Below are positions 1 to 50,182 of a stretch of 64,000 nucleotides of DNA, piece by piece; within the stretch, counting starts at the first letter, position 1; every line of letters starts with the position of its first letter. Source of the stretch: Minisyncoccota bacterium (GTDB lineage Bacteria; Patescibacteriota; Minisyncoccia; Phycocordibacterales; Phycocordibacteraceae); assembly GCA_022842945.1 (NCBI GenBank), contig JALHOO010000001.1, positions 24,847 to 88,846 of the forward strand. The letters are read 5' to 3'. The translations under genes were made by a program, and so were the position numbers. Below the pieces are notes generated by a model. It saw nothing but the letters and a program-made list of their open reading frames with translations. It was not told the origin of the DNA and did no database searches.

Positions 1-914
1 CGGGACGGGACGCTGACGCTTTCTTGGCGCTTGATCCGGTATCAACAGGATTGCCAACACTTATCGCAAGCAAGCTTCTAAGGAAACCCTTCTTTGTGAA
101 AGTGGTGGGGGACTACGCGTGGGAGCAGGGCACACAACGGTATGGGGTACGGTTGCTCCTTGATGAGTTTGTGCGCACGCATCATGTGCCAACCATGGTG
201 TCCTTCTTTAGAAAGGTGCAGACATATGTTGCATCGTCTGCTACCAAGGTTATTGTCCCAAGCGAATACTTGAAGGGTATCGTCTGTGCGTGGGGCGTAC
301 CGAGCGAGCAGATTTCTGTGGTGTACAACGCAATGCAGACGGAAGAACCCGGCACGCTTCCATTGTCTGTTAATGCCGCTACGCGTCCGCGCGTGGTCTC
401 TGTGGGACGCCTGGTTCCGTGGAAAGGGATGCCTGGGATTATTGACGCGGTTGTTGTGGCGCGTGAGACCCTTCCTGAGGTAACCCTTTCAATCGCGGGA
501 GACGGTCCAGATCGGGACAAGCTCGAGCGGTTTATGCATGCAAGGCTCGGTACGTCAGGAATGATGCTCGGACCTCTTTCGCACGCTGATACGCTCGCGC
601 TTATACAGGATGCGGATGTGTTCATTCTGAACTCAACCTACGAGGGTCTCTCGCATCTTCTTATAGAAGCACTTGCGCAAGGTACGGCCATAATCGCTAC
701 AGACGTGGGTGGAAACCCTGAGCTTATCGAGGACGGGAAGAACGGTCTCTTGGTGCCGCAAGGGGACCGTACCGCACTCTCTGAAGCACTGCTACATCTT
801 TTGAAGACTCCCCTACACCGAGAGAAGCTTGGGAGTCGGGCGCGTGAGTCGGCGAAGCGGTTTAGCACGTCAGTTATGGCGAAGGCTACTGCGGATATAC
901 TTACGGCCGTATGA
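1..914 (+). CDS. Glycosyltransferase family 4/1, 5'-truncated at window edge (the track ORF begins at 24 but the reading frame is open to position 1)
   Basis: The C-terminal GT-B domain has the E-x7-E region (VFILNSTYEGLSHLLIEALAQG...GGNPELIEDGKNGLLVP). The length is too short for a full GT4, so the gene probably starts upstream of the window. Confidence 0.7.
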   Translation, partial: GRDADAFLALDPVSTGLPTLIASKLLRKPFFVKVVGDYAWEQGTQRYGVRLLLDEFVRTHHVPTMVSFFRKVQTYVASSATKVIVPSEYLKGIVCAWGVPSEQISVVYNAMQTEEPGTLPLSVNAATRPRVVSVGRLVPWKGMPGIIDAVVVARETLPEVTLSIAGDGPDRDKLERFMHARLGTSGMMLGPLSHADTLALIQDADVFILNSTYEGLSHLLIEALAQGTAIIATDVGGNPELIEDGKNGLLVPQGDRTALSEALLHLLKTPLHREKLGSRARESAKRFSTSVMAKATADILTAV

Positions 915-2038
915 AAGTCCTCCTCATAACAGATGACCCAACAGTGCTAGACCTTGGAAGCTCAGGTCACACCCGTGCAAAGGAGAATGCGGTTGCGATA
1001 GGGGAGCTGCACGTACTCATTAGTACAGGAAAGACAGAAACACGAGACGAAGGCAGTCTTAGAATTCATACCGTTAAAAAGGGTCTGTTTTCAAAGTATG
1101 CACACCTCAGAAGCGCAGCGCGCACGATAGTAGAGACACACGGTATTCAGGCTATATGGTCTCAGGATCCATTTGAGCTTGGCGATATAGCATCGAAGGT
1201 TGCACACAGATTCTCGCTCCCGTTGTACGTAAACGTGTATACAGACTTTATGTCCCCGTGGTACTCCACGCGTACCGGCATGCTGCGCTCGTCAAAAGTA
1301 GGTGTGCCGAAAGGTAACGCGCGCAGGCTTCGTCTTGCGCATAGCGTGCTTCCAAAGGCAAACGGCATTCGTGTTATGTCTGGGCGGGTTAAGGATGCGC
1401 TTATAAAGAAATACGGTGCCACCATCAAGGAACCTGAGGTTATCCCGGTGTCGGTGAGCATGAGTCCTCCGGAAGCTACGTCCCTTCCGTTTTCTTTCCC
1501 GTTTTCGCTCATTGCTGCTGGACGCCTTGATGCAGGGCGCCGGGTTATCGATATCATCGATGCGCTTGCTCTCATTAAAGACCGGTATCCAGGTGTGGGT
1601 CTGTTTGTTGTTGGGGATGGGCCTGAGCGTGCACGCCTTGAACGCCATGCCGCTCACAAGAAACTCACAGAGCGGGTTATCTTCCTCGGGGACCGCAGAG
1701 ACACCTGGGGACTTATACGGTGCGCGAATGTGTTTATTCAGGCGAGTGCGCATGAGGGTTATGGACGACGAATCCTTCAGGCGGCACTCGCACGCGTCCC
1801 TATCATTACAACCGATGTGGGTATTGTGGGAGAGGTGTTCAAGGGATATGACGATGTCCTGGCCATGCCTCCAGGAGACCCTTCTGCACTCTCGGTACAC
1901 ATCGCGGGCCTTATGGAGGACGGACAATCCAGGCAGCTTCTTGCGATGAATGCTGAAGCTTCCGCAAAGCGCTTCCTGCAGGAGGCGGGGAATGTTCCGG
2001 AGCGTCTTGCGAAGTTTCTCTCGACTACTTCAGTATGA
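911..2038 (+). CDS. Glycosyltransferase family 1 (GT-B fold)
   Basis: Motifs FVVGDGPERARLE...ASAHEGYGRRILQAALARVPIITTDVG. The ATGA start overlaps the upstream stop. Confidence 0.8.
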   Translation: MKVLLITDDPTVLDLGSSGHTRAKENAVAIGELHVLISTGKTETRDEGSLRIHTVKKGLFSKYAHLRSAARTIVETHGIQAIWSQDPFELGDIASKVAHRFSLPLYVNVYTDFMSPWYSTRTGMLRSSKVGVPKGNARRLRLAHSVLPKANGIRVMSGRVKDALIKKYGATIKEPEVIPVSVSMSPPEATSLPFSFPFSLIAAGRLDAGRRVIDIIDALALIKDRYPGVGLFVVGDGPERARLERHAAHKKLTERVIFLGDRRDTWGLIRCANVFIQASAHEGYGRRILQAALARVPIITTDVGIVGEVFKGYDDVLAMPPGDPSALSVHIAGLMEDGQSRQLLAMNAEASAKRFLQEAGNVPERLAKFLSTTSV

Positions 2039-3168
2039 ACATCCTAATGGTTTCACTCGACCGTAAGGTCTTTATAGAAGGAGATCCTACGCGCCTACGT
2101 CTTGCGGGGTACGGCAGAGTTTTCAACGAGCTGCACATCATTGTCTATACGAAGAAGAATCTCGGTTTTGTAGACACTAAGATTGCAGACAACGTATGGC
2201 TGTATCCAACGAATTCTTCGAGTCGCTTTGTATATGTCACTGATGCAATACGTATCGCACGGAAACTCTTCAAAGGAAGAAAGCAAGGAATCTCTCTTGT
2301 GTCTGGACAAGATCTAGCAGAGACAGGGTATGCGGCCTGGCGTATCGCACGCATGTTGAAGACGCCGCTCCAGCTGCAGGACCATGCAGGAGTATTCGAC
2401 CCCTATTTCATGAGTGAAAGTGTGGGAAATAAAGTTCGGGCATTCATAGCGAGCTTTCTTCTGCCGAAGGCCGATTGTGTTCGCGTTGTTCTTCCACAGG
2501 GCAAGGAAGATATTGTTGCTCGTTTCCCGCACCTTGAGGCACGAATAGCAGTACTACCGGTATATACGCCCATTGACCACTTTAGGGACACAAGCCCGGC
2601 ATTTTCTCTGCATGATAGGTACCCGCAGTTCTCCTCGATATTTCTTATGGCGTCGAGACTTGTTCCTGAGAAGGATATTGGTTTTGCATTACGAGCCTTT
2701 AAGGAGGCAGATATAGCCGAGAGCGGACTTATCATTGTTGGGGAAGGACCATGTAAAGAAGTACTTGCAGCGGAAGTCATTGAATTAGATCTTGAAGACC
2801 GCGTGGTCTTTGTTCCGTGGGAAAAGGACCTCGTCTCGTATTACAAAACAGCAGACGTATTCCTCCTATCCTCTACGCACGAGGGGTACTGCCGTACGCT
2901 TGTTGAAACTGTTGCCTCGGGACTACCGTTCGTATCGACTGATGTTGGTGTTGCACAGACACTCATCTCTGCGGGAGCAGACGGAATTCTTGTGTCGCGT
3001 GGCGATCATGTTGGATTTAGAGATGCCATGCGTTCCAAGGTCTTCCGACCTGTAGTTGCAACCAATAGTAGAGGACTTGATCTGATTCAGAAGATGACCG
3101 GAAAAAGCGAGGAGGAGTATCGGGCCCGCTATGCTGCAAGTCTCCAGGTCTGCGCAAAGATTGTATAA
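2035..3168 (+). CDS. Glycosyltransferase family 1
   Basis: Motifs IVGEGPCKEVL...LSSTHEGYCRTLVETVASGLPFVSTDVG. The ATGA overlaps the upstream gene. Confidence 0.8.
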   Translation: MNILMVSLDRKVFIEGDPTRLRLAGYGRVFNELHIIVYTKKNLGFVDTKIADNVWLYPTNSSSRFVYVTDAIRIARKLFKGRKQGISLVSGQDLAETGYAAWRIARMLKTPLQLQDHAGVFDPYFMSESVGNKVRAFIASFLLPKADCVRVVLPQGKEDIVARFPHLEARIAVLPVYTPIDHFRDTSPAFSLHDRYPQFSSIFLMASRLVPEKDIGFALRAFKEADIAESGLIIVGEGPCKEVLAAEVIELDLEDRVVFVPWEKDLVSYYKTADVFLLSSTHEGYCRTLVETVASGLPFVSTDVGVAQTLISAGADGILVSRGDHVGFRDAMRSKVFRPVVATNSRGLDLIQKMTGKSEEEYRARYAASLQVCAKIV

Positions 3169-3176
3169 ATGCTTGT

Positions 3177-4223
3177 ATGAGACTCCTTGTTATTACTCAG
3201 GCACTCGACCTCGATGATCCAGTTCTCAGTGTTTATCATGACTGGGTAGCAGCACTCGCTAGTGTCTCGCAGAGTGTTGAGGCAGTGTGCCTTAAGGAGG
3301 GAAGGCGCGCATTGCCGGAGAACGTAACCGTGCACTCTCTGGGGAAGGAGACAGGACCGAAGTCACGTCTTGGGTATGCATGGAAATTCCTTGCTCTCGT
3401 GTGGAATAGACGCAGTCAATATGACGCGGTGTTCGTGCACATGAATCAGGAGTACGTGCTCCTGGCAGGACCTCTCTGGAGGCTTCTCGGGAAGAAGGTG
3501 TATCTCTGGCGCAACCATTACGCGGGGTCCTTGCTCACGGACCTCGCCGTGTTCTGGTGCACGGCAGTGTTCTGTACCTCGAAGCGCTCATATACGGCGA
3601 AGTATGCAAAGACTGTGCGCATGCCCGTAGGTGTGAACACGGATCGCTTCGTACAAGAGGCTGGCGAGCGTGTTCCGCGATCTCTCTTGTTATTCTCTCG
3701 CATCGCACCATCGAAGCATGTGGATCTCTTTGTTGAAGCACTTGGCCTGCTCAAGGAGAGAGGAGTAGTGTTCGTAGCTTCTATAGTCGGATCTGCTCCG
3801 CCAGAGTTCGAAGCATATGCTGCAGAAGTGAAAGAGCGTTCGAGTGAGCTCGGGCTCTCAGAGCAGCTCAGATTCTTGCCCGGCGTACTGAACGAGGATG
3901 CGCCACTGGTATACCGTCTGCACGAGATATACGTCAACTGCTCTCCGTCTGGCATGCTCGACAAGATGATTTTCGAGGCAGCAGCGTCCGGATGCCTTCT
4001 CCTAACAGAGAGCGAGGACATGCAGAGCTTCGGTTTCGAGGACGTTACGTATGACGCAGGGGATGTAGAGTCTCTTGCCAACCACATGGAGCATTTACTT
4101 AATTGCACTGACGAAGAGCGTGCTGCACTACGTGTACGGTTCGAGGCACTAGTTAAAGCACATAGCCTTACAGGCCTCGCACGAACTATTGTGGCGCACA
4201 TGGAATCAGCGGGCTCGCGGTAG
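3177..4223 (+). CDS. Glycosyltransferase family 1
   Basis: The C-terminal GT-B domain is present (KMIFEAAASGCLLL...). It lies in the glycan cluster. Confidence 0.7.
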   Translation: MRLLVITQALDLDDPVLSVYHDWVAALASVSQSVEAVCLKEGRRALPENVTVHSLGKETGPKSRLGYAWKFLALVWNRRSQYDAVFVHMNQEYVLLAGPLWRLLGKKVYLWRNHYAGSLLTDLAVFWCTAVFCTSKRSYTAKYAKTVRMPVGVNTDRFVQEAGERVPRSLLLFSRIAPSKHVDLFVEALGLLKERGVVFVASIVGSAPPEFEAYAAEVKERSSELGLSEQLRFLPGVLNEDAPLVYRLHEIYVNCSPSGMLDKMIFEAAASGCLLLTESEDMQSFGFEDVTYDAGDVESLANHMEHLLNCTDEERAALRVRFEALVKAHSLTGLARTIVAHMESAGSR

Positions 4224-4235
4224 AATCAAGGACAC

Positions 4236-4682
4236 ATGAGGTACTATCTTGATTTTGAGGGAACGTGCTTCGATTCAGATGCTTTTTCGGCGTACATGGC
4301 TGGAAAGACTGAAGACGATTTAATACCAGGAGAACTCTCACAATTCCTGTATCCCGATGCTGCCCAGTTTCTTCGTGATAAGGAGAACGCTGTAACCATC
4401 ATAACTACAGGCAGTCGCGCTACGCACGAGGCAAAGACTAAAAGTGCTCTCCATGGCATTCCACGTATGTCGGTTATGTATACGGATGGTGTAGCGAAAG
4501 GTCAGTATCTTGCTCCTCATACCCATCTCCATGTTGATGCGGTACTTGCAGACGATTCCGTTGAGGAGCTTGAGGTGCTCGCTAAAGAGTGCCCACAGCT
4601 AGGTCTGTACGAGATGCGCAGAGGCAATAGGGAAGGGGATGGTTCCTGGCCGGTTATACGCTCGCTCGCTGAGTTGCCGTAA
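4236..4682 (+). CDS. Hypothetical protein, possibly a HAD-like phosphatase
   Basis: Loose HAD motif pattern: LDFEGT (motif I-like), ITTGS, a Lys, and LADDSVEE. Assignment is weak. Confidence 0.35.
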   Translation: MRYYLDFEGTCFDSDAFSAYMAGKTEDDLIPGELSQFLYPDAAQFLRDKENAVTIITTGSRATHEAKTKSALHGIPRMSVMYTDGVAKGQYLAPHTHLHVDAVLADDSVEELEVLAKECPQLGLYEMRRGNREGDGSWPVIRSLAELP

Positions 4683-4701
4683 TGTGAGAGAATATAGGCA
4701 C

Positions 4702-5358
4702 ATGGCTTCGACGCGCATATATCGGAATAAGGCAGAGCTCATACGCTCTTCGGCGGGGCCTGAGGACACTGTTCTTGATGTGGGGTTCCTCGGACAAGGC
4801 ATACGACTTGGGGAGGAGAACTGGCCCCATGGCCTTATGCAGAAGCAAGCAAAGGAAGTGTTCGGTCTCGATCTAGAGATAGATAGGAACGCATTCCCTG
4901 ACACACGCCACTATGTTCAAGCGAGCGCTGAAGACTTCTCATTTACTGATACAAAGTTCGATCTCGTGTTTGCGGGCGACCTTATAGAACACCTTCCGAA
5001 TCCTGGACTCTTTCTCGCAAGTGTTAAAGAACACCTTACAGCCAACGGACGGTTGATACTCACAACACCGAACGCATTCAATCTGTTCAACCTAACAGAG
5101 AAACTTTCTAAGGAAGAGCCTACGGTTAATGCAGACCATACCTGCTATTTCAATTCAAAAACTCTGCGCGTGCTTCTCTCTAAGTGTGGGTTCGAGATTC
5201 AGGAGATAGGGTATGTGTACACCCTTGAATACGGACATCGCGAGAGTCTGAAGAAAAAGATTCTTAATGTGCTGTACCGAGTTCTTTCATGGTTTACTCC
5301 AAAGTTTCTCGAAACGCTTGTTGTTGTCGCGGTGCCTAAGCAAGCACATATCAACTAA
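4702..5358 (+). CDS. Class I SAM-dependent methyltransferase
   Basis: Motifs VLDVGFLGQG (motif I) and DLVFAGDLIEHLPNP...NGRLILTTPN. Start chosen at ATG 4702; the track ORF from 4639 overlaps the upstream gene. Confidence 0.7.
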   Translation: MASTRIYRNKAELIRSSAGPEDTVLDVGFLGQGIRLGEENWPHGLMQKQAKEVFGLDLEIDRNAFPDTRHYVQASAEDFSFTDTKFDLVFAGDLIEHLPNPGLFLASVKEHLTANGRLILTTPNAFNLFNLTEKLSKEEPTVNADHTCYFNSKTLRVLLSKCGFEIQEIGYVYTLEYGHRESLKKKILNVLYRVLSWFTPKFLETLVVVAVPKQAHIN

Positions 5359-5367
5359 CTCATCGAG

Positions 5368-6013
5368 CATGCCTACCCCTGTCCTTGAAAGTATTTACGC
5401 CTCGCACCATACCAAACGACGCGGAGACGGATTCGTGCTCTTGGGAGACCTCCGTGGCGGTTTTCTCAAAGAGCGCATCGGTAACGGGAAGAAGGTGCTC
5501 GATATTGGTTGTCGAGATGGTGCGCTGACGAGTTATTTTGCAGAGAATAACGATGTGCTTGGTATAGATATAGATTCAGCAGCACTAACTCGCGCCGCGG
5601 AAGACTATGGCATCCAAACAAGCCAGATTGATTTAAATGGCGACTGGAACCTTCCGCACGCAGCCTATGACGTGGTTGTGGCAGCTGAGGTTGTGGAGCA
5701 TCTGTATTATCCCGAAACGGTTTTTAAAAAGGTGCATGACGTATTAAAGCCAGGGGGCATGTTCCTCGGTACGGTTCCAAATGCGTTCTCGCTTATACAT
5801 CGCGTCAGGTACCTTATAAAAAGAAAGCGCAGCACGCCCCTCATGGATCCGACGCACATAAACCACTTCGTGGTGCGCGAACTTGAAGAAATGTTGGAAA
5901 AGCAATTCACAGACGTGCGTATCCATGGTCTTGGAAGGTACGGTACGCTTGCGCGGTTGTTTCCTCAGATGTTTGCATATGATCTTGCGTTTGAAGGACG
6001 GAAGAAGTTGTAG
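5368..6013 (+). CDS. Class I SAM-dependent methyltransferase
   Basis: Motifs VLDIGCRDGALT...DVVVAAEVVEHLYYP...LKPGGMFLGTVPN. Start at ATG 5368, after the upstream stop at 5358. Confidence 0.7.
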
Positions 6014-6024
6014 GAGGTATCTGT

Positions 6025-7053
6025 ATGGCGAGCCGGTATTTATATCTGTACGGGGGAGCGATTGGTGATGCGCTGGTCGGTATTCATACTGGCCGACTTC
6101 TAGCTGAGAATATCCCGAGCGCACGTCTCGAACTGATCTCCACTCGACACAATGTCTTTGTGAAAGAGATGGTGGCAAACCTACCGTTCATTGAGTATCG
6201 AGAACTTGATAAGAAGGATTTTGCTGCATGGTTGATACTCCCACGGTACCTCTTTCGATCGTACGCTTCAGTGGCATACGATCCGGTAACATCAGCGGTG
6301 CCATTGTGGTGGCGTCTCATACTATGGTGCGCTCGTCAGGGGAGAGGCGTGCAAGTTCGGTACCAGCGCATAGGACATGAGTCCCCACTGCCGAAAGGAG
6401 TACAGAGACGTACGTACGACTGTCAGAAGGAGAGCTTCTTTACGGATACTCCGTTGAAGATTCTTGCCTCGTGGGGTGTACCGCTTGAGCATGTCACGTT
6501 ACCTTCGTTACCCAGACGATCTTCTCCTGAAGGAAAGCCCTATATTCTGTTTCATTTCTTTGCCGCAAACTATAGTAGGAGTATCCCCACTGATCATGCG
6601 CGCTCCATTCTTCTGGCAGCTCGCACGCAGTTTCCAAACCATCTATTTATCCTGACGTGCGCCGAAAACGAAAGGGCCCGGGCAGAGAGAATGATCGAAG
6701 GGGTTTCTGGAACACGCATTGAGGAGAATCTTCCAGCAACAGAAGTAATCGCACTTCTTTCGGGCGCAGACATTGTTGTGGGAACCTCCTCAGGCATCAT
6801 CTTTATGGCAGTACACCTTGGTGTGTCGGTGGTTGCGATGTCCTGTCTTGTTGATCCGTGTTTCTTGCCGACGTATAGCACCACTACGACTATTCTTGCC
6901 GCACGAGACGAGTGTTGGTGTAATAGTGATAAGACAGGAGGGTGTGTTGAGGAGACGCCAGAGGGCGAAGTGTTTCGATGTCTCTATTACATACCAACAG
7001 AAGCTGTTGTAGAGGCGATGGTCGGTTTCTCCAATCGTTTAGTAAAGAATTAA
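6025..7053 (+). CDS. Glycosyltransferase family 9 (ADP-heptose:LPS heptosyltransferase-like)
   Basis: GT9 pattern: N-terminal GGAIGDAL, mid YILFHFFAANYSRSIP, C-terminal LLSGADIVVGTSSGIIFMAVHLG. Confidence 0.65.
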   Translation: MASRYLYLYGGAIGDALVGIHTGRLLAENIPSARLELISTRHNVFVKEMVANLPFIEYRELDKKDFAAWLILPRYLFRSYASVAYDPVTSAVPLWWRLILWCARQGRGVQVRYQRIGHESPLPKGVQRRTYDCQKESFFTDTPLKILASWGVPLEHVTLPSLPRRSSPEGKPYILFHFFAANYSRSIPTDHARSILLAARTQFPNHLFILTCAENERARAERMIEGVSGTRIEENLPATEVIALLSGADIVVGTSSGIIFMAVHLGVSVVAMSCLVDPCFLPTYSTTTTILAARDECWCNSDKTGGCVEETPEGEVFRCLYYIPTEAVVEAMVGFSNRLVKN

Positions 7054-7073
7054 CTGTTCGCCACTCTTCAATT

Positions 7074-8099: not shown

Positions 8100-8133
8100 A
8101 CAGGACCCGGTTCTCCTATATAATCTGACTATT

Positions 8134-11894: not shown

Positions 11895-11897
11895 CGT

Positions 11898-12380
11898 ATG
11901 GGAAAGATTCTTCCATTCGAGCGCTTACTAGAAGAGGTTGAGCAATTGAGGAAGGCCGGGAAGACTATCGTTGCAACCAATGGTTGCTTCGATCTTCTGC
12001 ATGTGGGACATGTTCGTAATCTAGAAGCCACAAAGGCGCTGGGCGACGTGCTCGTGGTTGGTCTCAATTCCGATAAGTCAGTGCGCGAAGGAAAGGGAGA
12101 TGCGCGTCCTATCGTTCCAGAAGCAGAACGTGCTGAAATGCTCGCAGCGCTCTCATCTGTTGACTACGTATTTATATATTCTGAGCGAACGCCGTTTTCT
12201 TGGATTACTGTGCTCCGACCTGATATCCATACCAAAGGGGGAGGGGAAGACATTCGCTCCCACCCCGATCTTCAGGCGCAAATTGATGTTGTTGAGGCGG
12301 CTGGAGGAAGATTCGTGTTAGTTGAGCATCATGATGGGCGGTCCAGTTCTCACATGGTCGAAAAGATACGAAGTAAATAA
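11898..12380 (+). CDS. Cytidylyltransferase-like nucleotidyltransferase, probable D-beta-D-heptose-1-phosphate adenylyltransferase (RfaE domain II/HldC-like)
   Basis: Motifs VATNGCFDLLHVGHVRNLE...VVGLNSDKSVREGKGDARPIV...VDYVFIY. Confidence 0.8.
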   Translation: MGKILPFERLLEEVEQLRKAGKTIVATNGCFDLLHVGHVRNLEATKALGDVLVVGLNSDKSVREGKGDARPIVPEAERAEMLAALSSVDYVFIYSERTPFSWITVLRPDIHTKGGGEDIRSHPDLQAQIDVVEAAGGRFVLVEHHDGRSSSHMVEKIRSK

Positions 12381-12383
12381 AGG

Positions 12384-12413
12384 AAAGCGGACGACCGAAG
12401 GTCGTCCGCTTTG
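12384..12413. terminator. Bidirectional intrinsic terminator between convergent genes
   Basis: Hairpin AAAGCGGACGACC-GAAG-GTCGTCCGCTTT. Confidence 0.6.
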
Positions 12414-12432
12414 TAGTTCTTGCTTACTCTAG

Positions 12433-13071
12433 CTACAGAAGAATGCGCATCAGGCGCACGATTCCTGCGAGCGTGAGTGCATCAGCCGAGAGAAGGACCG
12501 ATTCCTTCCATGGCATGAAGTAGAGGTCACTTTCTTTTGCGTGATGAATCAGGTGCGCGCGAGGTCTCCATCGCGTTTCCGAAATTTGCACGAGGTCCTT
12601 AATCGGGCATTCAAGAGCAAATGTCGGCATGCCCTCGCCCTCGTGAGGATTCTGAACGAAGTACATACGATCAGAATTTACCGGAAGTCCTGGAAGCAGG
12701 CGAGCACCTGAAGTGTTGATGCCCCCTTCTTCTTGGCTTTCGCGGCATTGGGCTTCCTCGGGAGATTCATCGACTTCGACAAAACCACCGAGTAAGCACC
12801 ACACCTTTTCCGGCCCCATATTAGGCCGAGATTCGTGTACGAGACCGATGAGTATCTCGCCTGCAGGTGTCCTTGACCAAGTTACGGTCGTGGCGCCACC
12901 TTTTCCAGGTTTAAATGCCCAGCCGTTAAAATTCTCAGGACGCCATCCGAAGACAAAGACCCCATACTCAGAACTTATTTCCAGATGGCGCGGATAGATG
13001 TTTTCGCCATCTGCCCGAATAGTCCATGTAAGTGGTTTTTCTGGTGGAACAGGCGCTATAGCAAATGTCAC
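12433..13071 (-). CDS. NUDIX hydrolase
   Basis: Complete Nudix box GGFVEVDESPEEAQCRESQEEGGI (G-x5-E-x7-REUxEExGU). Confidence 0.7.
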   Translation of the reverse strand: MTFAIAPVPPEKPLTWTIRADGENIYPRHLEISSEYGVFVFGWRPENFNGWAFKPGKGGATTVTWSRTPAGEILIGLVHESRPNMGPEKVWCLLGGFVEVDESPEEAQCRESQEEGGINTSGARLLPGLPVNSDRMYFVQNPHEGEGMPTFALECPIKDLVQISETRWRPRAHLIHHAKESDLYFMPWKESVLLSADALTLAGIVRLMRILL

Positions 13072-13175
13072 GTGTGTAACTCCACTGTGTGAATATGAAC
13101 GTCAATCTTATTGCATTTAATCACATTTAGCTTAATAAGTCAATATGTAGGTACCTATCCCCTAATACCAAGTAT

Positions 13176-13781
13176 ATGAAGAAAAGGAGTATAATACGGG
13201 AAATGAGGAAAACCATCATGATGTGGGATGTGTTGAAATCCCTTAATGAAGAACATCAGTCTGCAGCAAGAAAAGACTTGAGGCTTACTTTTGAGTCCGA
13301 AACTGGTTTCGTTAAAAGAGATCAGCTCATCTATCTTTACGCGATACAACATGAAGGGTTTCTCCTTTGGAGAAAAGCAAGACACCTGTGGTGGCGCTAT
13401 TTCCACAAGCATAGGTTCCAAGGAGTTTGCTTGCATTGCAAGCTAGAAGATCTTGAACTTTCAAACTACAAAGAGGTTGGTAGAAAGCAGCGAGAGCTGA
13501 TGGGAAAGATAGATAGGGTCTTAAAAAAGGCGGAAAACTGTACACCCAAACTTGTTGAGGTTAAGGATTTGCATGACGGCTTCTATGAAGATGGCAAGAA
13601 GAAAATGGAGCGGAACATAAGGCTTACTCAGGCAGGAGAGGACTTCGTCGAGTTTGAAGGTCTTTTAAAGAAATTATGGGACGAAGATTGGAAGGTCATG
13701 ACAGGAATTGTGAGCACAATTATTGCTCTGATAACCAGCTTAACTTTATTGATCATTAAAGTTATCGAATTAGCTTCTTAG
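13176..13781 (+). CDS. Hypothetical tail-anchored membrane protein (passenger of the IS element)
   Basis: Soluble N-terminal region of about 175 aa and a single C-terminal TM helix (IVSTIIALITSLTLLIIKVI). AT-rich codon usage differs from the neighbours. Confidence 0.45.
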   Translation: MKKRSIIREMRKTIMMWDVLKSLNEEHQSAARKDLRLTFESETGFVKRDQLIYLYAIQHEGFLLWRKARHLWWRYFHKHRFQGVCLHCKLEDLELSNYKEVGRKQRELMGKIDRVLKKAENCTPKLVEVKDLHDGFYEDGKKKMERNIRLTQAGEDFVEFEGLLKKLWDEDWKVMTGIVSTIIALITSLTLLIIKVIELAS

Positions 13782-13930
13782 CTTTTGGTTTAATTTGGTT
13801 ATCCACAATATTAAATATGGTCTATGTAGGCCATATTTACCTGATTATCGTTGACGCTGTCGCTGTCGCGTGTATACTACTAGTACATATGGCTTCGGCC
13901 TCGCCCCGCCTCGTGTGGGGCAAAATTCGT

Positions 13931-14344
13931 TTATGGGAAAAGAGTGGTTTTTAAAGAAGCCACGACTTTATTAAAAGTTGGCTCATCCAGTGTTGCCATT
14001 TTCTTTACGAGCCTTCTGGCATCAATTGTTCTGACCTGTGACAGTATTACAGATCCGTCTCCCTCGTCGCCGATTTCACCTAAGTAAACGTGCCACTTAC
14101 TATTCTCCCTTTTCCTCCCAGTCAGGGCGACGCCAAAGAATTGAGATTTGTTAAATCCCCGAATTATTAAGACTGGTCGATCAAAGTTCTCTCCCGTACC
14201 GTCTTGCTCTGTACCAATGTTAACTCCTAGGGCACACCACCAAATCTCACGTTCATTGTAGAAAGGATGGTCTTCTTTAGAGTGCAGACCCTTCTTGGTT
14301 GGATGCCATGCCTCAAAATCCTTAGTATAGGGTTCCTCGTTCAT
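13931..14344 (-). CDS. MazF/PemK(Kid)-family endoribonuclease toxin-like protein with N-terminal extension
   Basis: Aligns with Kid/PemK: EIWWCALGVNIGTEQDG...RPVLIIRGFN...FFGVALTGR...VILSQVRTIDARRL...NKVVASLKTTL, versus the Kid pattern EIWLV.LDPT.G.EQ.G.RPVLIV...FN...V.VT...Q.RTID...N.VL.RL.TIL. Confidence 0.55.
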   Translation of the reverse strand: MNEEPYTKDFEAWHPTKKGLHSKEDHPFYNEREIWWCALGVNIGTEQDGTGENFDRPVLIIRGFNKSQFFGVALTGRKRENSKWHVYLGEIGDEGDGSVILSQVRTIDARRLVKKMATLDEPTFNKVVASLKTTLFP

Positions 14345-14431
14345 TTGCAGATTATTCTACGCCTTTTTGCGCGGTGCGCTATACTTTCTACATGTCCGAA
14401 CGCAACAACTTCTTCGACCTCTTAAAGAAAG

Positions 14432-15253
14432 CTATCGGCTCGCCCGTTCCAACAGGTGGGCAAACACCGGAACCGGAGAGTTCCGAAGGTTATAACGATA
14501 CGCAAACTCGTCCAAGTACGCCTGAAGGTGCTGGGGAGACACGAACGCGTACGTCCCCCGAACAGACTTCTTAAACTGGCCCCAGAAGCCTTCAATGGTG
14601 TTGGTGTGCGTATCGCCCCAGGTGTAGTGATTCTTGCCGTGCTTCACGTTGGTATGGCTGTAGCCGTACGCGCGGTATGAGAGCTTATCGTAGCCACGGT
14701 ACTCATCCGTCATAACGCGGGTACCGCGCTCTACGTTCTCTTTAACCATAGGCAGGATAACTTCTGCACGGCGGTTAGGGGCCTTCTTCACACGTACGCG
14801 TCCCTGACGCTCAACCATACCGATAACCGCGTCCTTGTTCTTGAACTTCATCGAGTTCTTGCCCTGCTTTCCGTAGTACGTCTCGTCTATCTCAACTACG
14901 CCGGACAACGGATCGCCGCCCTGCTCCATGAGGGCGCGAATCTGGTGTCCCATGCGCCACGCGCACTTGTACGTCACGCCAAGCTGACGCTGTAGCTCCT
15001 TGGCCGAAACCCCGTTCTTCGAGGACGCAAAGAGGAATATCGCATGGAACCAGAGCGTGAGGGGTGTAGAGGACTTCTCAAAGATAGTCCCTGCAAGGGG
15101 GTGTATCTGCTTTCCCTGAGGGTTAGCGTATGCCTTGCGCTTACTCATACGGCAAAACTGCTTCGCGTCAGGGTATTTCTGGCGGAATATGTAATCTAGG
15201 CACGCTTCATCTGTAGGAAACTCTTTGTGGAGGTCTTTAATCGTGTACTTCAT
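14432..15253 (-). CDS. IS1595-family (ISXO2-like) DDE transposase
   Basis: Motifs VVEIDETYYG, MTDEYRGY and HTNTIEGFWGQFKKSVRGTYAFVSPQHLQAYLDEFAYRYNLRN, which are the characteristic IS1595 C-terminus. An N-terminal zinc-ribbon-like region is present. Confidence 0.8.
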   Translation of the reverse strand: MKYTIKDLHKEFPTDEACLDYIFRQKYPDAKQFCRMSKRKAYANPQGKQIHPLAGTIFEKSSTPLTLWFHAIFLFASSKNGVSAKELQRQLGVTYKCAWRMGHQIRALMEQGGDPLSGVVEIDETYYGKQGKNSMKFKNKDAVIGMVERQGRVRVKKAPNRRAEVILPMVKENVERGTRVMTDEYRGYDKLSYRAYGYSHTNVKHGKNHYTWGDTHTNTIEGFWGQFKKSVRGTYAFVSPQHLQAYLDEFAYRYNLRNSPVPVFAHLLERASR

Positions 15254-15319
15254 TACCTATATCCTATACCAAGAGCTACTTGGCATCAAGGGATAGGTAC
15301 CAATATGTATTCCTTTTGG

Positions 15320-16567
15320 CTATTTTGCTCTCCAATATAGGAAGACTCCAAATCCAAGAACGAAGAAGCTGGTAAGTACACGTCCGGCGATAAGTCCTGC
15401 TAGGCCGAAGAGGAGGATACCCGATACCTGAAACAGTATCTGCATGATGGGGTTAACCGTATTGAAGAGATAGAGCGTCTTAACGTGTGCGTGTGCGATA
15501 AGGGCATTCGTAAGAACTCCTCCCATAGTTGCGGCAAGCGTAAGTGCGTACCATTGTGAATATGGAACCGCTTCCATGTAGGCAGGGAAGAAGATCGAGA
15601 AGAGTGGAAACGTAATAAGCATGTAGGCACCTGCAAGGAGCGCGGAAAGAAACGTGCCAACCAGGAGACGATACCCAAGACCCTGTCTAATCTCATGAGG
15701 CTTCTTGCCAACAAACTTCGGGAAGGCGGCCGCCGGGATGAATTTAAAGAGCGCACCAATGCGATCGGGGATGGCAGTTGAGAAACTGTAAATAGCGAGT
15801 GCTGCGGGACCGAGAAGGTGGAAGGTAAGAATATTGTCGATCTGCGAAGCAAGGCTTCCAAGGAGCCCCATGATGCTTAGGTGCCCACCATACCGTAAGG
15901 CCTTCGGGTCTACCGCTGTATTTGGCTTATAGGTAATGAGCGTATGCCGATAGGCAATGAATAGACCAATTGCCTGAGCGATAAGGTTTGCTCCAAGCAG
16001 AATCAATGCGGCGTCATAGAACACCGCAGCAACGCCCACACAAAGATAGTAGGGAATGTTCCACCAGAGACTGTAGAAGAACCCTCGTTTGAAATCCCTC
16101 TTTGCCTGTAGGTATGAGCCATAGGTGCTGAACGCATTGTTCAAAGGAACAAATACGCCAATGAGTATCAGACCCCACCCAATAGTCTGGTCTCCGGTGT
16201 AGAGAAAGTACGCGCCACCTACCCATGCGCCAATGAGGGGAAATATGCCCCAGCGCAACTGAGCCATAAGTGCAGAGTGTACGGACCCTTCAAACCCAAG
16301 TGCGACTGATCGCGTTACAGCACTCTTCATGCCCGTTAGAGTAAAAGCACCCACAACAGCACCGAGAGAGAGTAGGTACTGATATGTGCCGTAGGTTTCC
16401 TTTGTGAGGAAGTGACTGAAGGCGACGTAGAGAAGGAAGGAAGCGACAGATACGAAGATGGTCCCGGCATTTGACCAGAAGCCAGTCGTGGCGAGGTAGA
16501 CCATGTCGGTCTTCGTAAACCGCTCAGCGGAGCGGAGGAGGCGATGGGTTCGGCCACGGAGGTCCAT
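15320..16567 (-). CDS. Polysaccharide/oligosaccharide flippase (Wzx-like, MOP superfamily)
   Basis: About 12 predicted TM helices. The N-terminus is typical of Polysacc_synt proteins (FTKTDMVYLATTGFWSNAGTIFVSVASFLLYVAFSHFLTKETYGTYQYLLSL). Confidence 0.65.
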   Translation of the reverse strand: MDLRGRTHRLLRSAERFTKTDMVYLATTGFWSNAGTIFVSVASFLLYVAFSHFLTKETYGTYQYLLSLGAVVGAFTLTGMKSAVTRSVALGFEGSVHSALMAQLRWGIFPLIGAWVGGAYFLYTGDQTIGWGLILIGVFVPLNNAFSTYGSYLQAKRDFKRGFFYSLWWNIPYYLCVGVAAVFYDAALILLGANLIAQAIGLFIAYRHTLITYKPNTAVDPKALRYGGHLSIMGLLGSLASQIDNILTFHLLGPAALAIYSFSTAIPDRIGALFKFIPAAAFPKFVGKKPHEIRQGLGYRLLVGTFLSALLAGAYMLITFPLFSIFFPAYMEAVPYSQWYALTLAATMGGVLTNALIAHAHVKTLYLFNTVNPIMQILFQVSGILLFGLAGLIAGRVLTSFFVLGFGVFLYWRAK

Positions 16568-16643
16568 TACTAGGTAATACTAGCCTGGAACCGACTAAGG
16601 TTACAGGAACACGTTGTCTAGGATATGTGTCGGTCGTATCATA

Positions 16644-17243
16644 ATGATTATGAAGAATCCAATCTCGGTTGATATTTCAAACGCATTCGATGAACTGGCA
16701 TTGCTCTTATCAACCCTGAAAGAGGACCAAGCATTACAGGTCTCAGTACAGAGCGCCGCCGACCTGCTCTACGAAAAGCTTTTAGAGGGTGGTGTGCTTT
16801 ACACTGCTGGCAACGGAGGAAGTGCTGCAGAGGCCCAGCACCTTACCGCAGAGTTCATTGGACGTTTTCGACGGGAGCGTCGCCCTTTTCCTGCTATGGC
16901 GCTTACCGCTGAAAGCTCTGCCGTAACGGCGATTGGAAATGATTATTCCTTTGACGAAATATTCGCACGTCAGATTACGGCACTCGGGAAGCCCAATGAT
17001 GTGTTCATTGCCTTAACAACCAGTGGCAACTCGCCGAATATTATTCAGGCACTTCATGCTGCAAAGAAGAAAGGAGTAGCAACTATTAGTCTCCTTGGAA
17101 AGGGGGGCGGGATGGCAAAGGGTATTGCTGATATAGATATTATTATTCCCTCAGATACGACCGCTCGGATTCAAGAGGTGCACCTTTTGGTTATTCACGC
17201 CGTGTGCGAGGCTTTTGATACGCGTCTCCTTGGGTCTGATTGA
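16644..17243 (+). CDS. gmhA: Phosphoheptose isomerase (sedoheptulose-7-phosphate isomerase) GmhA, SIS domain
   Basis: Motifs YTAGNGGSAAEAQHLTAEFIGRF, VFIALTTSGNSPNII and ISLLGKGGG. Start chosen at ATG 16644; the track ORF begins at TTG 16614. Confidence 0.8.
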   Translation: MIMKNPISVDISNAFDELALLLSTLKEDQALQVSVQSAADLLYEKLLEGGVLYTAGNGGSAAEAQHLTAEFIGRFRRERRPFPAMALTAESSAVTAIGNDYSFDEIFARQITALGKPNDVFIALTTSGNSPNIIQALHAAKKKGVATISLLGKGGGMAKGIADIDIIIPSDTTARIQEVHLLVIHAVCEAFDTRLLGSD

Positions 17244-17285
17244 TAAAGAGCGTAAGGGTGTGGCGCATAGTATACTGGCCCTATC

Positions 17286-19460
17286 ATGAAAAACGTTGCT
17301 CGCTGGACCGCCATTATCGCGCTCTTTACCATCCCGTTCCTTCCTTTATATGTAGCTGGAGAGCTATTCTTCCCGTTTATAACTGGGAAGAACTTTGCGT
17401 TCCGTATCCTTATTGAGATTGCCATAGCGAGCTACGCAGTCCTTGCCATTGTCGACAGGCGGTACCGTCCCCGCTTCTCCTGGATCCTCGTCCTGTTTAC
17501 GGCATTCGTTGCCTGGATGGCCATTGCGAACTTCCTGGGTGTGCACCCGCACAAAGCATTCTGGAGCAACTTCGAGCGTATGGATGGTTGGATAATGCTT
17601 ATCCATGTGTACGGGCTCTTCATTGTTGCAACGTCTGTACTTACGGTTGAGAAGCTTTGGAGGCGCTGGTGGATGTTCTTCCTCTCCGTGGGTGCGTTTG
17701 TATGTCTGTATGGTCTTATTCAGACCGTTGGAGGTGCTCAAATCCATCAGAGCGGTACTCGCATCGATGCGTCGTTTGGAAACGCTATCTACATGGCGGT
17801 GTACCTCATGTTCTCCATCCTTATAGCAGGATGGCTTGCGGTTACCTCAAAGGGCTGGGTACGCTACGCGCTCGCTGGATCTGCAATTCTTTCACTCCTC
17901 CTTCTCCTCTTAACCGCATCTCGCGGTCCGCTCATTGGTCTTGCGGCAGGTATTGGTGCGGCAAGCGTACTGTGGCTTGGTCTCAGTCTTCGTTCAAAGG
18001 AGACCAGGAACTCTGTTGGACTTAAGTGGGCAGCAGGAGGCCTTCTTGGACTCCTCATTCTTATCGGAGGCTTCTACCTCGTTCGCGACTCTGCGTTTGT
18101 CGAACAGACTCCAAGCCTTTCTCGTCTCTCGAGCGTGTTCACTCTGAGCGAGGAACTCGAGGTGCGCTCTACCATTTGGGGCATTGCGCTTCAGGGTGTA
18201 CAGGAAGATCCGTTAACTGGATGGGGCCAGGAAGGATTCAATCAGGTATTCAACAAGTACTACGAGCCATCTCTCTATGCTCAGGAGGCGTGGTTCGATA
18301 GGGCACACAACATGTACATCGATTGGCTCGTAGCAGGAGGTATTCCAGCGCTACTCCTATTCGTGTCACTACTCGCGCTCGCATTCTTTGCTCTTCTGCG
18401 CGCACCTGAGTACACCCGCGCAGAGCGTGCTCTCCTTATAGGAGCACTTGCTGCATACGCCGTGCAGGCACTCGTAGTGTTCGATAACCTCTTCAGCTAT
18501 GTGCCGCTCGCTATTCTGCTTGCTATGGCACATGCGTCAGCGTCCCGAACTATTCCCGCTCTTGAAGCATTGCCTGAAGTGCGCTCGGAGAACAATCGAA
18601 CAATCGTTGGTGTAGTTGCGGTACTCGTGGCGGGGGCAGCGGTATGGATGGTTAACGTGCCAAGTATTAATGCCGCAAATCATTTGGTGTATGCAGTGTC
18701 GCCCTCACAGGCAGGGATTGCAACAAACCTTGAGCTCTTCAAGATGGCGCTCAAGGACGGATCTTTCGCTAATCAGGAGATACGCGAGCAGCTCTCCATG
18801 TTTTCAAAGAGAGTTTCAGAGGAGGCAAATGTGCCAGACGAGTTAAAGTCTGCACTTGTTGCGCTTGCGATTGAAGAGATGGCTAAGGAAATAGCGTTCT
18901 CGCCAAGCGATGCTCGTTTGCGTGCTCAGTATGCACAAGCCCTTGAAACAGCAGGGAAGTCCGAAGAGAGCATTGCCGAGTTCGAGAGTGCGATCGAGCT
19001 TTCTCCAAGAAAGCAGGCTCTGTACATAACGTATGGATTTAGCCTATATAGACTTGGACGTCTTGAGGAGGCACAGGAGGCGTTTAGAATAGCGTATGAG
19101 CTCGACCCTTCTTTTGAGGAGGTTGCGATAACAAGTGCGTCTGGCTACATTCTCACGGGTAGCGTTGCCGAAGGAAAGGCACTCCTTATGGAAGCTCTTG
19201 GTACTACCACTCCGGATCACGACATACTGTTCTATGCGTACTATCAGACACAGCAGTGGAATGAACTCATTGGTGTTGCAGAGGCGCGCGTAACAGCAGA
19301 GAGCGGTTCTGCTGCTAGTAGACTGCGTCTCGCACAGGCATACGCTGTTGCCAATCGCTTTGCAGAAGCTCGTGCCGAGATTGAAGCTACGATTGCTGCT
19401 CATCCAGGGAGCCGCACGGAAGCAGAGGTTCTTCTTGCAAAGATCTTGCAAGCTCAGTAA
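17286..19460 (+). CDS. O-antigen ligase/polymerase-like (Wzy_C-type) polytopic membrane protein with C-terminal TPR repeats
   Basis: About 10 N-terminal TM helices with an LTASRGPLIGL motif. The C-terminal roughly 250 aa are TPR-like (AQYAQALETAGKSEESIAEFESAIELSP...). Confidence 0.55.
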   Translation: MKNVARWTAIIALFTIPFLPLYVAGELFFPFITGKNFAFRILIEIAIASYAVLAIVDRRYRPRFSWILVLFTAFVAWMAIANFLGVHPHKAFWSNFERMDGWIMLIHVYGLFIVATSVLTVEKLWRRWWMFFLSVGAFVCLYGLIQTVGGAQIHQSGTRIDASFGNAIYMAVYLMFSILIAGWLAVTSKGWVRYALAGSAILSLLLLLLTASRGPLIGLAAGIGAASVLWLGLSLRSKETRNSVGLKWAAGGLLGLLILIGGFYLVRDSAFVEQTPSLSRLSSVFTLSEELEVRSTIWGIALQGVQEDPLTGWGQEGFNQVFNKYYEPSLYAQEAWFDRAHNMYIDWLVAGGIPALLLFVSLLALAFFALLRAPEYTRAERALLIGALAAYAVQALVVFDNLFSYVPLAILLAMAHASASRTIPALEALPEVRSENNRTIVGVVAVLVAGAAVWMVNVPSINAANHLVYAVSPSQAGIATNLELFKMALKDGSFANQEIREQLSMFSKRVSEEANVPDELKSALVALAIEEMAKEIAFSPSDARLRAQYAQALETAGKSEESIAEFESAIELSPRKQALYITYGFSLYRLGRLEEAQEAFRIAYELDPSFEEVAITSASGYILTGSVAEGKALLMEALGTTTPDHDILFYAYYQTQQWNELIGVAEARVTAESGSAASRLRLAQAYAVANRFAEARAEIEATIAAHPGSRTEAEVLLAKILQAQ

Positions 19461-41392: not shown

Positions 41393-41397
41393 TGTCT

Positions 41398-42632: not shown

Positions 42633-42686
42633 GTAATACGATATACTGTCTACAATGATTCGCGCATGGTGTGGGATAGAGAAGCT

Positions 42687-50181: not shown

Positions 50182-50182
50182 A

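Follow-up and report, generated by a model that had tools for sequence, protein, structure and literature searches.

The 64-kb stretch analysed here (hereafter the window; positions 24,847 to 88,846 of contig JALHOO010000001.1, from a Minisyncoccota bacterium) opens with a gene cluster in which a set of putative ADP-heptose activation genes stands beside two glycosyltransferases of family GT9, a Wzx-type flippase, a membrane protein with Wzy_C and TPR domains, and a three-gene module encoding a zinc-dependent alcohol dehydrogenase (ADH) and the α and β subunits of a thiamine diphosphate (ThDP)-dependent E1 enzyme. Genes were called by comparing six-frame open reading frames (ORFs) of the window with Pfam and NCBIfam (Table 1). 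A series of 14 genes on the + strand (24-12380) comes first; most adjacent ORFs overlap by 1-8 nt, a spacing typical of operons, and a hairpin beyond the last gene is likely the bidirectional terminator that closes this long operon. In identical contigs from other sequencing runs (L006), where the glycosyltransferase at the window edge is complete (365 aa), the operon continues upstream with one further GT4-family gene, a short-chain dehydrogenase/reductase (SDR) of the epimerase/dehydratase type and a TraG/VirD4-like gene, giving a total of five GT4 enzymes, four of them inside the window, and two GT9-fold enzymes. The gene order is shared, at 55% protein identity, with a second contig (L009) and in part with six Patescibacteria genomes (L013-L018), so the arrangement does not reflect chance. 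All genes named by an earlier sequence-only reading of this DNA (four glycosyltransferases placed in GT1, two methyltransferases, two GT9 enzymes, GmhA, HldA- and HldC-like proteins, Wzx, the Wzy_C/TPR protein and MurB) were recovered by Pfam or NCBIfam where it had placed them; its listing lacked the Zn-ADH, E1α, E1β, the NUDIX hydrolase, the IS1595/MazF element and the upstream GT4 and SDR genes.

Table 1. Features of the glycan locus and of the sedoheptulose-7-phosphate supply genes, in window coordinates.
Feature	Position	Strand	Evidence or remark
GT4-family glycosyltransferase, 3' part	1-914 (ORF 24-914)	+	PF00534, 123 bits; gene begins 184 nt upstream of the window
GT4 'b'	911-2038	+	PF00534
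GT4 'c'	2035-3168	+	PF13692, PF00534
GT4 'd'	3177-4223	+	PF13692, 40.7 bits
Small HAD-superfamily phosphatase-like protein, 148 aa	4236-4682	+	family-level HAD evidence
SAM-dependent methyltransferase 1, class I	4702-5358	+	PF13489, PF08241; start codon as in L006
SAM-dependent methyltransferase 2, class I	5369-6013	+	PF13489, PF08242, PF08241
GT9a	6025-7053	+	PF01075, 28.6 bits
GT9b	7074-8099	+	PF01075, 24.8 bits; heptsyl_trn_III, 36.7 bits
Zn-dependent medium-chain ADH, NAD-type	8134-9165	+	ADH_N, ADH_zinc_N
ThDP-dependent E1α, like E1 of pyruvate dehydrogenase (PDH) or acetoin dehydrogenase	9162-10115	+	PF00676, 190.8 bits
E1β	10108-11154	+	Transket_pyr, Transketolase_C
HldA-like PfkB kinase, 247 aa	11151-11894	+	rfaE_dom_I, 101.9 bits
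HldC-like nucleotidyltransferase	11898-12380	+	rfaE_dom_II, 162.8 bits
GC-rich hairpin, 13 bp	12384-12412		between convergent HldC and NUDIX genes
NUDIX hydrolase	12433-13071	-	PF00293
IS1595-family element with MazF	13145-15306		30-nt imperfect inverted repeats
192-aa ORF of the IS1595 element	13203-13781
MazF of the IS1595 element	13931-14344	-	PemK_toxin
Transposase of the IS1595 element	14432-15253	-	DDE_Tnp_IS1595
Wzx-type MOP flippase	15320-16567	-	PF01943, 30.1 bits; divergent from the GmhA gene
GmhA-like sedoheptulose-7-phosphate isomerase	16650-17243	+	PRK13936, 215.6 bits
Wzy_C/TPR membrane protein, 724 aa	17286-19460	+	Pfam Wzy_C; WaaL fold
MurB	19460-20479	+	start codon overlaps the Wzy_C/TPR stop
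RpiB	41392-41886	+	unlinked supply route for sedoheptulose-7-phosphate
Rpe	41910-42632	+	unlinked supply route for sedoheptulose-7-phosphate
Split transketolase	N-terminal part 43496-44353, C-terminal part 46109-47098	+	sedoheptulose-7-phosphate supply

The host belongs, as the sequence-only reading had supposed, to the Candidate Phyla Radiation (CPR). The GT9a family, scanned with one genome per species, occurs in six genomes, all of them Patescibacteria (Kaiserbacteria, Paceibacteria and Parcubacteria), and the SecA of the window shares 82% identity with the SecA encoded on contig GCA_036405415.1, where the Wzy_C/TPR protein bears the NCBI name Candidatus Paceibacterota. The phylum Patescibacteria has been described as monoderm (PMC11665869). 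The statement that no lipid A genes are visible also held: no lpx, kds, lpt or bam gene was found among the annotated ORFs of the 64-kb window. Literature searches on heptose, heptosyltransferases or O-antigen ligases in CPR bacteria, and on ThDP in connection with heptose, yielded one passing remark only, namely that among freshwater CPR bacteria ADP-heptose synthesis is encoded by Paceibacteria only (PMC9166423).

Comparison with other Paceibacteria separates the locus into a constant and a variable part. In L009 and in four further contigs (L102-L105), the right flank consists of the genes for the Wzy_C/TPR protein, MurB, SecA, Obg, GatB, a protein of ~290 aa and a giant protein, and the MurB start overlaps the Wzy_C/TPR stop in L102-L105 as well. 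The left-hand genes of these four contigs comprise a single GT4 (L103), GT25, GT-D, GT2 and RmlD-like genes (L102), an asparagine-synthase-like gene, a TylF-like gene and a GT2 (L104), or PGM, a UDP-sugar dehydrogenase and a DegT aminotransferase (L105). From this constant right flank and the wholly different genes to its left, it follows that a variable glycan cassette occupies a fixed site and that the Wzy_C/TPR gene is part of the backbone. The series from Wzy_C/TPR through MurB, SecA, Obg and GatB to the giant protein is thus the conserved backbone, and the heptose genes are one interchangeable cassette. Between contigs with unrelated sugar genes, the Wzy_C/TPR protein remains 48-56% identical and MurB 51-62%. 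Wzx keeps its position and varies in sequence from cassette to cassette: it lies to the left of Wzy_C/TPR, adjacent and divergent in L102-L104, separated from it by GmhA in L009 and in the window, and at a distance of two genes in L105; the window's Wzx is 66% identical to that of L009 and 42% to that of L103, and an unrelated Wzx stands in its place in L102. The most widely retained glycosyltransferase of the cassette is GT4 'b', a 46% identical ortholog of which is the sole glycosyltransferase of the minimal cassette in L103. Mobile DNA is present within the cassette as well, in the form of the IS1595/MazF segment, the whole of which is absent in L009. On the far side of the variable cassette, a TraG/VirD4-like coupling protein is the conserved left neighbour in several Paceibacteria (L006, 1-1084; L009, 674-2500; L103, 3938-5560).

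The Wzy_C/TPR protein has 13 predicted transmembrane helices, a Wzy_C domain, the membrane fold of WaaL with a conserved Arg and a conserved His in an outward loop, and a C-terminal TPR domain of ~260 residues that is predicted to be extracytoplasmic. Its relatives form more than 120 clusters at 50-88% identity, all of ~715-725 aa, and the named sources of the hundreds of close relatives are nearly all Patescibacteria or Paceibacterota, one partial protein being labelled Rectinemataceae. Because its conservation is independent of the cassette, its fold is that of WaaL and no co-polymerase accompanies it, we favour an en-bloc ligase or O-oligosaccharyltransferase (O-OTase) over a Wzy polymerase. 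Such cassette-independent conservation fits a relaxed glycan specificity as in PglL, PilO and WsaB. As to the acceptor, the outward TPR domain and the nearby giant protein, rich in Ser, Thr and Gly, are compatible with protein glycosylation, and the coupling to MurB would suit an acceptor in the cell wall; no evidence emerged for the pilins or the giant fibre, which the sequence-only reading had named as candidate targets; a lipid A-core appears not to be on offer, given that none of its genes lies in the window and that the phylum is monoderm. The sequence-only reading had likened the protein to oligosaccharyltransferases. In favour of this stand the WaaL fold and the cassette-independent conservation; the fold searches returned WaaL as the sole strong match and no solved structure of an OTase or Wzy.

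The alternative that survives best, which we nonetheless regard as unlikely, is that the Wzy_C/TPR protein is a Wzy repeat-unit polymerase and that the locus makes a Wzx/Wzy-type capsule or exopolysaccharide, released or attached by another enzyme, with no en-bloc ligation. Pfam's Wzy_C spans polymerases and ligases alike, a Wzx flippase lies near the gene in every context, and no acceptor was identified. A Wzy polymerase, however, normally co-varies with its repeat unit, whereas this protein stays as constant as MurB while Wzx changes. Neither this co-variation with repeat-unit genes nor a Wzz/PCP (polysaccharide co-polymerase) partner, the two marks of a Wzy polymerase, was found, no Wzz/PCP gene being seen in any of the six contexts (the window, L009 and L102-L105). 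The seven glycosyltransferases suggest a long single unit, and the only strong structural match is a ligase.

Within the cassette, a β-type (ADP-)heptose activation set appears to be present, as had been proposed, judging by GmhA-, HldA- and HldC-like homology. The GmhA-like protein is a clear homolog slightly below equivalog level (PRK13936, 215.6 bits, cutoff 276; TIGR00441, 191.1 bits, cutoff 209.45), and the HldC-like protein, which keeps the HxGH motif, likewise falls slightly short of its cutoff (rfaE_dom_II, 162.8 against 181.5 bits). The kinase, the presumed heptose-7-phosphate 1-kinase, is more divergent (rfaE_dom_I, 101.9 bits against a cutoff of 345; 247 aa compared with about 315), keeps the PfkB catalytic motif DTSGAGD, and has Burkholderia HldA as its top PDB match (4e84, E = 5.8e-8), with which it has the N-terminal lid motif in common. 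Such a combination of isomerase, PfkB-type kinase and nucleotidyltransferase, resembling GmhA, HldA and HldC respectively, marks the β (ADP) branch and not the GDP branch. Downstream of HldC and convergent to it, the NUDIX gene is absent from L009, and its homologs follow HldC in two unrelated loci (L037, L048); this retained position suggests a nucleotide-sugar pyrophosphatase rather than a random neighbour.

The phosphatase step was the gap noted by the sequence-only reading, which held a GmhB-type enzyme to be missing unless a weakly HAD-like ORF at 4236 filled the role. The absence of GmhB and the HAD-like nature of the ORF were both borne out. No GmhB model (Pfam, NCBIfam) matched in the locus, and ORF 4236-4682, which taken by itself has no HAD signal in Pfam, NCBIfam or PDB, was assigned to the HAD family through its relatives. 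An exhaustive search found 76 members, whose alignment contains the HAD motifs DxDxT, T, K and DD (consensus DFDRT...T...K...DD); 15 of 56 members match PF12710, and a profile of the 56 relatives matches HAD structures including N-acylneuraminate-9-phosphatase. On the strength of these motifs, Pfam matches and profile-structure matches, we count ORF 4236 as a HAD-family protein; it is a reasonable stand-in for GmhB and thus a candidate heptose-1,7-bisphosphate 7-phosphatase. The substrate of the pathway, sedoheptulose-7-phosphate, could be supplied by RpiB, Rpe and the split transketolase, which lie with the other central-carbon genes of the window at 40-49 kb, apart from the glycan operon. 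Two genes, Fic/DOC (44526-45725) and HTH_3 (45743-46099), have been inserted between the two parts of the transketolase gene, which is surrounded by genes for GAPDH, a PfkB kinase, a class I aldolase, RpiB and Rpe. Given this genuine transketolase (43496-47098) and the far closer relation of E1α to PDH-type E1 enzymes, we rejected the idea that E1α/β serve the organism as its transketolase for sedoheptulose-7-phosphate.

No other part of the locus is as conserved or as unusual as the trio of ADH, E1α and E1β. Identity to L009 reaches 79-81% for these proteins (ADH 79%, E1β 81%) compared with ~55% for the glycosyltransferases. The ADH has intact catalytic Zn ligands and an NAD-type Rossmann fold with an Asp after the GxGxxG motif, and its closest solved structures are class III and class I ADHs. 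E1α retains the ThDP motif GDG...NN and reaches 274 bits with PDH_E1_alph_y (cutoff 394); E1β reaches 257 bits (cutoff 321). With these sub-equivalog scores and no lipoyl-E2 or E3 gene nearby, the pair does not qualify as E1 of a pyruvate or acetoin dehydrogenase complex. The E1α family is tight and large, 63-83% identical over many Patescibacteria and one Cyanobium. An 11/12 match to a sigma-70 promoter (TAGACA-16-TATAAT, 8097-8124), located within the end of GT9b and a short way upstream of the likely start of ADH (8134), is a possible internal promoter of the ADH-E1-kinase-HldC block.

To view the genomic context of the trio, we fetched 80 metagenomic E1α loci and clustered the neighbours of the 54 that span at least 8 kb. 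The order ADH, E1α, E1β, HldA-like kinase is fixed and often followed by HldC. ADH was present in 45 of these loci, E1β in 43, the kinase in 35, HldC in 13 to 18 and GmhA in 10; for the 24 loci that extend 6 kb or more to either side, the corresponding counts were 23, 24, 17, 12 and 8. A 4,6-dehydratase-like SDR, also found upstream of the window's operon, occurs in 15 of these 24 complete loci. All other recurrent neighbours are glycan genes as well: 4,6-dehydratase-like SDRs, GT2-, GT4-, GT9-, GT11- and GT47-like enzymes, FkbM methyltransferases, a cupin, an FAD oxidase, and ABC or Wzx exporters. No E2, E3 or fermentation gene was found among the neighbours in the 54 loci. Three loci (L065, L071, L086) encode an ADH-E1α fusion of ~666 aa. 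In five others (L020, L035, L043, L045, L054), a phosphatase-like gene of the EEP family (Exo_endo_phos) takes the place of the kinase after E1β, and the ADH of L020 has an N-terminal extension of ~250 aa. A family of unknown function ('c6') that often lies beside ADH in other loci was considered as a cryptic GT9, and hhalign showed no relation.

In the cyanobacterial member, from a Cyanobium sp. (L019, GCA_024345815.1), the trio shares its locus with genes for GmhA, for an HldA-type kinase and for a fusion of HldC with GmhB; the GmhB half of this fusion scores above equivalog cutoffs. Here the trio is 59-71% identical to that of the window (ADH 59%, E1β 71%), compared with 45% for GmhA, 44% for HldC and 23% for the kinase. 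The Cyanobium heptose cluster is disrupted by several transposase and integrase genes, which, together with the identity of the trio, suggests that the ADH-E1α-E1β module has moved horizontally from one phylum to another in freshwater.

Building upon reports that E1α/β pairs add a pyruvate-derived C2 branch to keto-sugars in the pathways of paulomycin, avilamycin, aldgamycin and kibdelomycin, and that the branch ketone is often reduced afterwards (PMC4802897; PMC12247030), our best guess, by analogy, is that the module branches or extends an activated heptose by two carbons. The enzyme that forms the keto-sugar in the antibiotic clusters could have its counterpart in the 4,6-dehydratase-like SDR, and the ADH itself could serve. 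A different order of events, which we consider distinctly unlikely, would let E1α/β and ADH act before activation: a carboligation like that of DXS or transketolase would yield an unusual sugar phosphate (a higher-carbon or deoxy ketose, or an alditol), on which the kinase and the HldC-like enzyme would then act, so that the product would not be a derivative of ADP-heptose. The lincomycin octose pathway, in which a heptose-like activation route works on a larger sugar, provides a precedent. The kinase, very divergent from HldA, is linked to the trio far more than GmhA or HldC, and the GT9 enzymes lack an aspartate of WaaC (see below). Yet GmhA and HldC score near their equivalog cutoffs, the Cyanobium locus has a bona fide GmhB domain, GmhA could not isomerise a pyruvate-derived 1-deoxy-ketose, and the organism already has a transketolase for sedoheptulose-7-phosphate.

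It is also conceivable, with a still lower probability in our estimate, that the ADH and E1α/β play no part in making the glycan and are merely carried along in the operon, converting pyruvate via acetaldehyde to ethanol or serving an acetoin/butanediol route. CPR bacteria are fermenters, the ADH is closest to the classical class I/III alcohol dehydrogenases and E1α/β to PDH or acetoin E1 enzymes, and some trio loci have no heptose genes within 10 kb. In all 54 loci, however, the neighbours are glycan genes and in none glycolytic or fermentation genes; the gene order up to the kinase is fixed, the trio also lies within the heptose cluster of Cyanobium, and the window's own central-carbon genes are grouped elsewhere. 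Moreover, Paceibacteria that carry other cassettes have no ADH/E1 trio within 8-10 kb of Wzy_C/TPR.

We then come to the enzymes that would use the activated sugar. Orthologs of GT4 'd' occur in L009 and L013-L018, and methyltransferase 2 is 73% identical in L009. GT9a and GT9b, 26% identical to each other, both score narrowly above the PF01075 gathering threshold of 22 and reach only 34-37 bits with the equivalogs of lipopolysaccharide (LPS) heptosyltransferases I, II and III (cutoffs 135-185). The GT9a family comprises the 25 proteins found. An AlphaFold2 model of GT9a (pLDDT 94.5) matches over its whole length WaaF (1psw, E = 2.6e-12, TM-score 0.68), a Veillonella GT9 (3tov, 0.72) and WaaC (2gt1/2h1h, 0.63-0.68). 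Asp13 and Asp261 are the catalytic and heptose-binding aspartates of WaaC. The equivalent of Asp13 is retained (AIGD in GT9a; a WaaC-like N-terminal SSIGD in GT9b), while in the alignment the Asp261 position is occupied by Ala or Ser in the GT9a family and by Gly in GT9b. Since both paralogs lack this aspartate, their donor may not be ordinary ADP-heptose and may instead be a modified heptose; ADP-heptose is a putative donor, the evidence being co-location with the pathway genes. The description of the two proteins as heptosyltransferase paralogs therefore stands for the GT9 domain and, from the GT9a model, the fold, and fails at the equivalog cutoffs and at Asp261. In the GT9a family, Cys297, Cys299, Cys307 and Cys319 are invariant and lie in a small β-hairpin insert near the C-terminus, an arrangement that hints at a metal site and recalls the TibC iron finger. 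Because of this four-cysteine motif, we examined an affinity to TibC, a protein heptosyltransferase, and discarded it, as TibC ranks only 39th among the fold matches, behind WaaF and WaaC.

One further reading can be dismissed as extremely improbable, namely an ordinary LPS inner-core/O-antigen locus of a diderm, with GT9 enzymes that add heptose to Kdo2-lipid A and a Wzy_C protein that is a genuine WaaL: GT9, ADP-heptose pathway, Wzx and a WaaL-fold protein do make up the classical LPS set, but the relatives found are all from the monoderm Patescibacteria, no lpx, kds, lpt or bam gene lies in the 64 kb, the GT9 scores are far from cutoffs of 170-185, and the WaaL-like protein has an additional transmembrane helix and a TPR domain.

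Taken together, we think it probable, though well short of assured, that this region is one form taken by a hypervariable locus for surface glycans in Paceibacteria, monoderm members of the CPR, and that it works by the following heptose-glycan mechanism. Sedoheptulose-7-phosphate from RpiB, Rpe and the split transketolase would be isomerised by GmhA and phosphorylated at C1 by the short HldA-like kinase; the HAD-like ORF or an unlinked enzyme would remove the phosphate at C7, and the HldC-like enzyme would form ADP-heptose, which ADH and E1α/β would modify. By analogy with the antibiotic-sugar enzymes, the E1 pair would decarboxylate pyruvate and place the two-carbon unit on a sugar carbonyl; the ADH would either create this carbonyl or reduce the new acetyl branch to 1-hydroxyethyl. 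The methyltransferases would add O-methyl groups, the GT4 and GT9 enzymes would assemble an oligosaccharide of roughly at least seven sugars on a polyprenyl carrier, and Wzx would flip it. The conserved WaaL-like enzyme would then transfer it en bloc to a conserved acceptor other than lipid A, possibly a surface protein, which would thereby be O-glycosylated, or else an anchor in the cell wall or membrane, with the outward TPR domain binding the acceptor or a partner. The sequence-only reading had suggested a heptose surface-glycan or O-glycosylation locus. Of that proposal, the non-LPS heptose glycan in a CPR monoderm, the HAD candidate and the ligase- or OTase-like protein are retained, and the ADH/E1 module and the division into cassette and backbone, which it had left out, are added here.

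Several observations weigh against this interpretation. GmhA, the kinase and HldC all score under their NCBIfam equivalog cutoffs, the kinase most of all (102 against 345 bits), and it is ~60 residues short. In addition to the missing GmhB, the locus contains no HldD ortholog; the upstream SDR (L006, 1134-2576) reaches 61.5 bits with heptose_epim (cutoff 274.6), lower than its score as a dTDP-glucose dehydratase. The window's copy of ORF 4236 has Glu at the second (acid/base) Asp of the HAD motif, and L009 has no homolog of it. The replaced Asp261 of the GT9 enzymes belongs here too, as does the want of an initiating phosphoglycosyltransferase in the locus or the window. Some loci (L020, L054) carry the trio with no kinase, HldC or GmhA within 10 kb, so the trio is not strictly tied to heptose. 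For the Wzy_C/TPR protein, no acceptor has been pinned down, and the fold match cannot separate ligase, OTase and polymerase because WaaL is the only solved member of the superfamily.

In a bolder version of the interpretation, which we regard as doubtful, a mobile ADH-E1α/β module would be common to CPR (Paceibacteria) and to some picocyanobacteria and would catalyse a hitherto undescribed ThDP-dependent C-C bond formation on ADP-heptose. In Paceibacteria, the resulting branched nine-carbon sugar would reach the surface by way of the WaaL-TPR enzyme, which would be coupled to MurB throughout the phylum and would act as a general O-oligosaccharyltransferase or a ligase to the cell wall for interchangeable, serotype-like cassettes.

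The remainder of the window contains further surface genes. The giant protein of the backbone (4203 aa, region 26222-40313), presumed to be a surface protein, consists of 13% Gly, 12.5% Thr and 10.6% Ser, has an HTH_17-like N-terminus and is preceded by a 295-aa HTH_17 protein. The position of this pair is kept in other Paceibacteria (L103-L105), where the giant proteins measure 2687-4480 aa. Other surface genes (42666-43220; 49720-50304, - strand; 51254-54672; 58778-60043, - strand) comprise two type IV pilin-like genes that encode N-terminal methylation motifs (42666-43220 and 49720-50304), together with genes for an SLT-domain transglycosylase, for a CARDB/PKD surface protein and for a GT2 of the processive type that is like chitin or cellulose synthases. 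An Rfam scan returned tRNA-Thr only.

Patescibacteria live attached to other microbes, their surface is the interface with hosts and phages, and their glycans are almost unstudied. Our comparison suggests that Paceibacteria keep a fixed glycan slot beside a WaaL-like/TPR transferase and MurB and fill it with diverse cassettes. It further suggests that ADP-heptose chemistry, usually a hallmark of LPS and an innate-immune signal, is used by a monoderm lineage, in which the ADH and ThDP-E1 module, 59-71% identical between CPR and a cyanobacterium, probably makes a modified heptose that has not been described. If the shared module and the WaaL-TPR interpretation are correct, ultrasmall episymbionts would have a surface-variation system that may matter for host recognition and phage evasion. 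The building blocks belong to known families. New in the literature searched are their combination in a monoderm CPR bacterium, the WaaL-TPR-MurB backbone with interchangeable cassettes, and an ADH-E1α/β module that spans phyla and is linked to heptose activation; what this module catalyses, which donor the GT9 enzymes use and what the glycan is attached to are inferred.

Compared with known systems, the locus resembles the classical ADP-heptose/LPS system in its GmhA-like, PfkB-type HldA-like and HldC-like set and in the top GT9 folds, WaaF and WaaC. It differs in belonging to a monoderm CPR bacterium with no lipid A genes within the window, in its sub-equivalog enzymes, shortened kinase and lack of GmhB and HldD orthologs, in the replacement of the Asp261 equivalent in both GT9 enzymes, and in the presence of ThDP E1α/β and an ADH within the pathway operon. 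Unlike WaaL (7TPJ) and the PglL/PilO OTases, the transferase has a 13th transmembrane helix and an outward TPR domain of ~260 residues, its gene is translationally coupled to MurB, and a lipid A-core is apparently not available as a possible acceptor. Similar in setting are the S-layer glycan loci of monoderm Bacillales, with the heptose-containing S-layer glycan of Aneurinibacillus thermoaerophilus and the Wzy_C-type O-OTase WsaB of Geobacillus stearothermophilus: a lipid-linked, possibly heptose-containing glycan is transferred to a surface protein by a member of the Wzy_C family. Those loci use the GDP-heptose α-pathway and export by an ABC transporter, whereas here the pathway is of the ADP type with Wzx, the transferase has a TPR domain and protein glycosylation is putative.

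In its genomic organisation, the locus is like the variable O-antigen and capsule loci between conserved flanks, such as galF-gnd in Enterobacteriaceae and dexB-aliA in pneumococcus, in that a fixed site with conserved flanks takes up wholly different sugar and glycosyltransferase cassettes with insertion sequences inside. Here, by contrast, the flank includes the transferase itself and MurB, and the hosts are of the ultrasmall episymbiont type, for which serotype-like variation is not described in the literature searched. The ADH-E1α/β module, finally, resembles by gene context the 'αKADH2' C-branching enzymes (AviB1/B2, Plm8/9, AlmDI/DII, KbDH-α/β): stand-alone E1 α and β subunits lie in a sugar cluster with no E2 or E3, and the C2 branch ketone of those systems is often reduced afterwards, which would explain the ADH. 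The αKADH2 enzymes act on deoxy-keto hexose nucleotides in secondary metabolism, whereas the module described here belongs to surface-glycan loci of CPR and cyanobacteria with heptose activation, and has a Zn-ADH partner that is sometimes fused to E1α.

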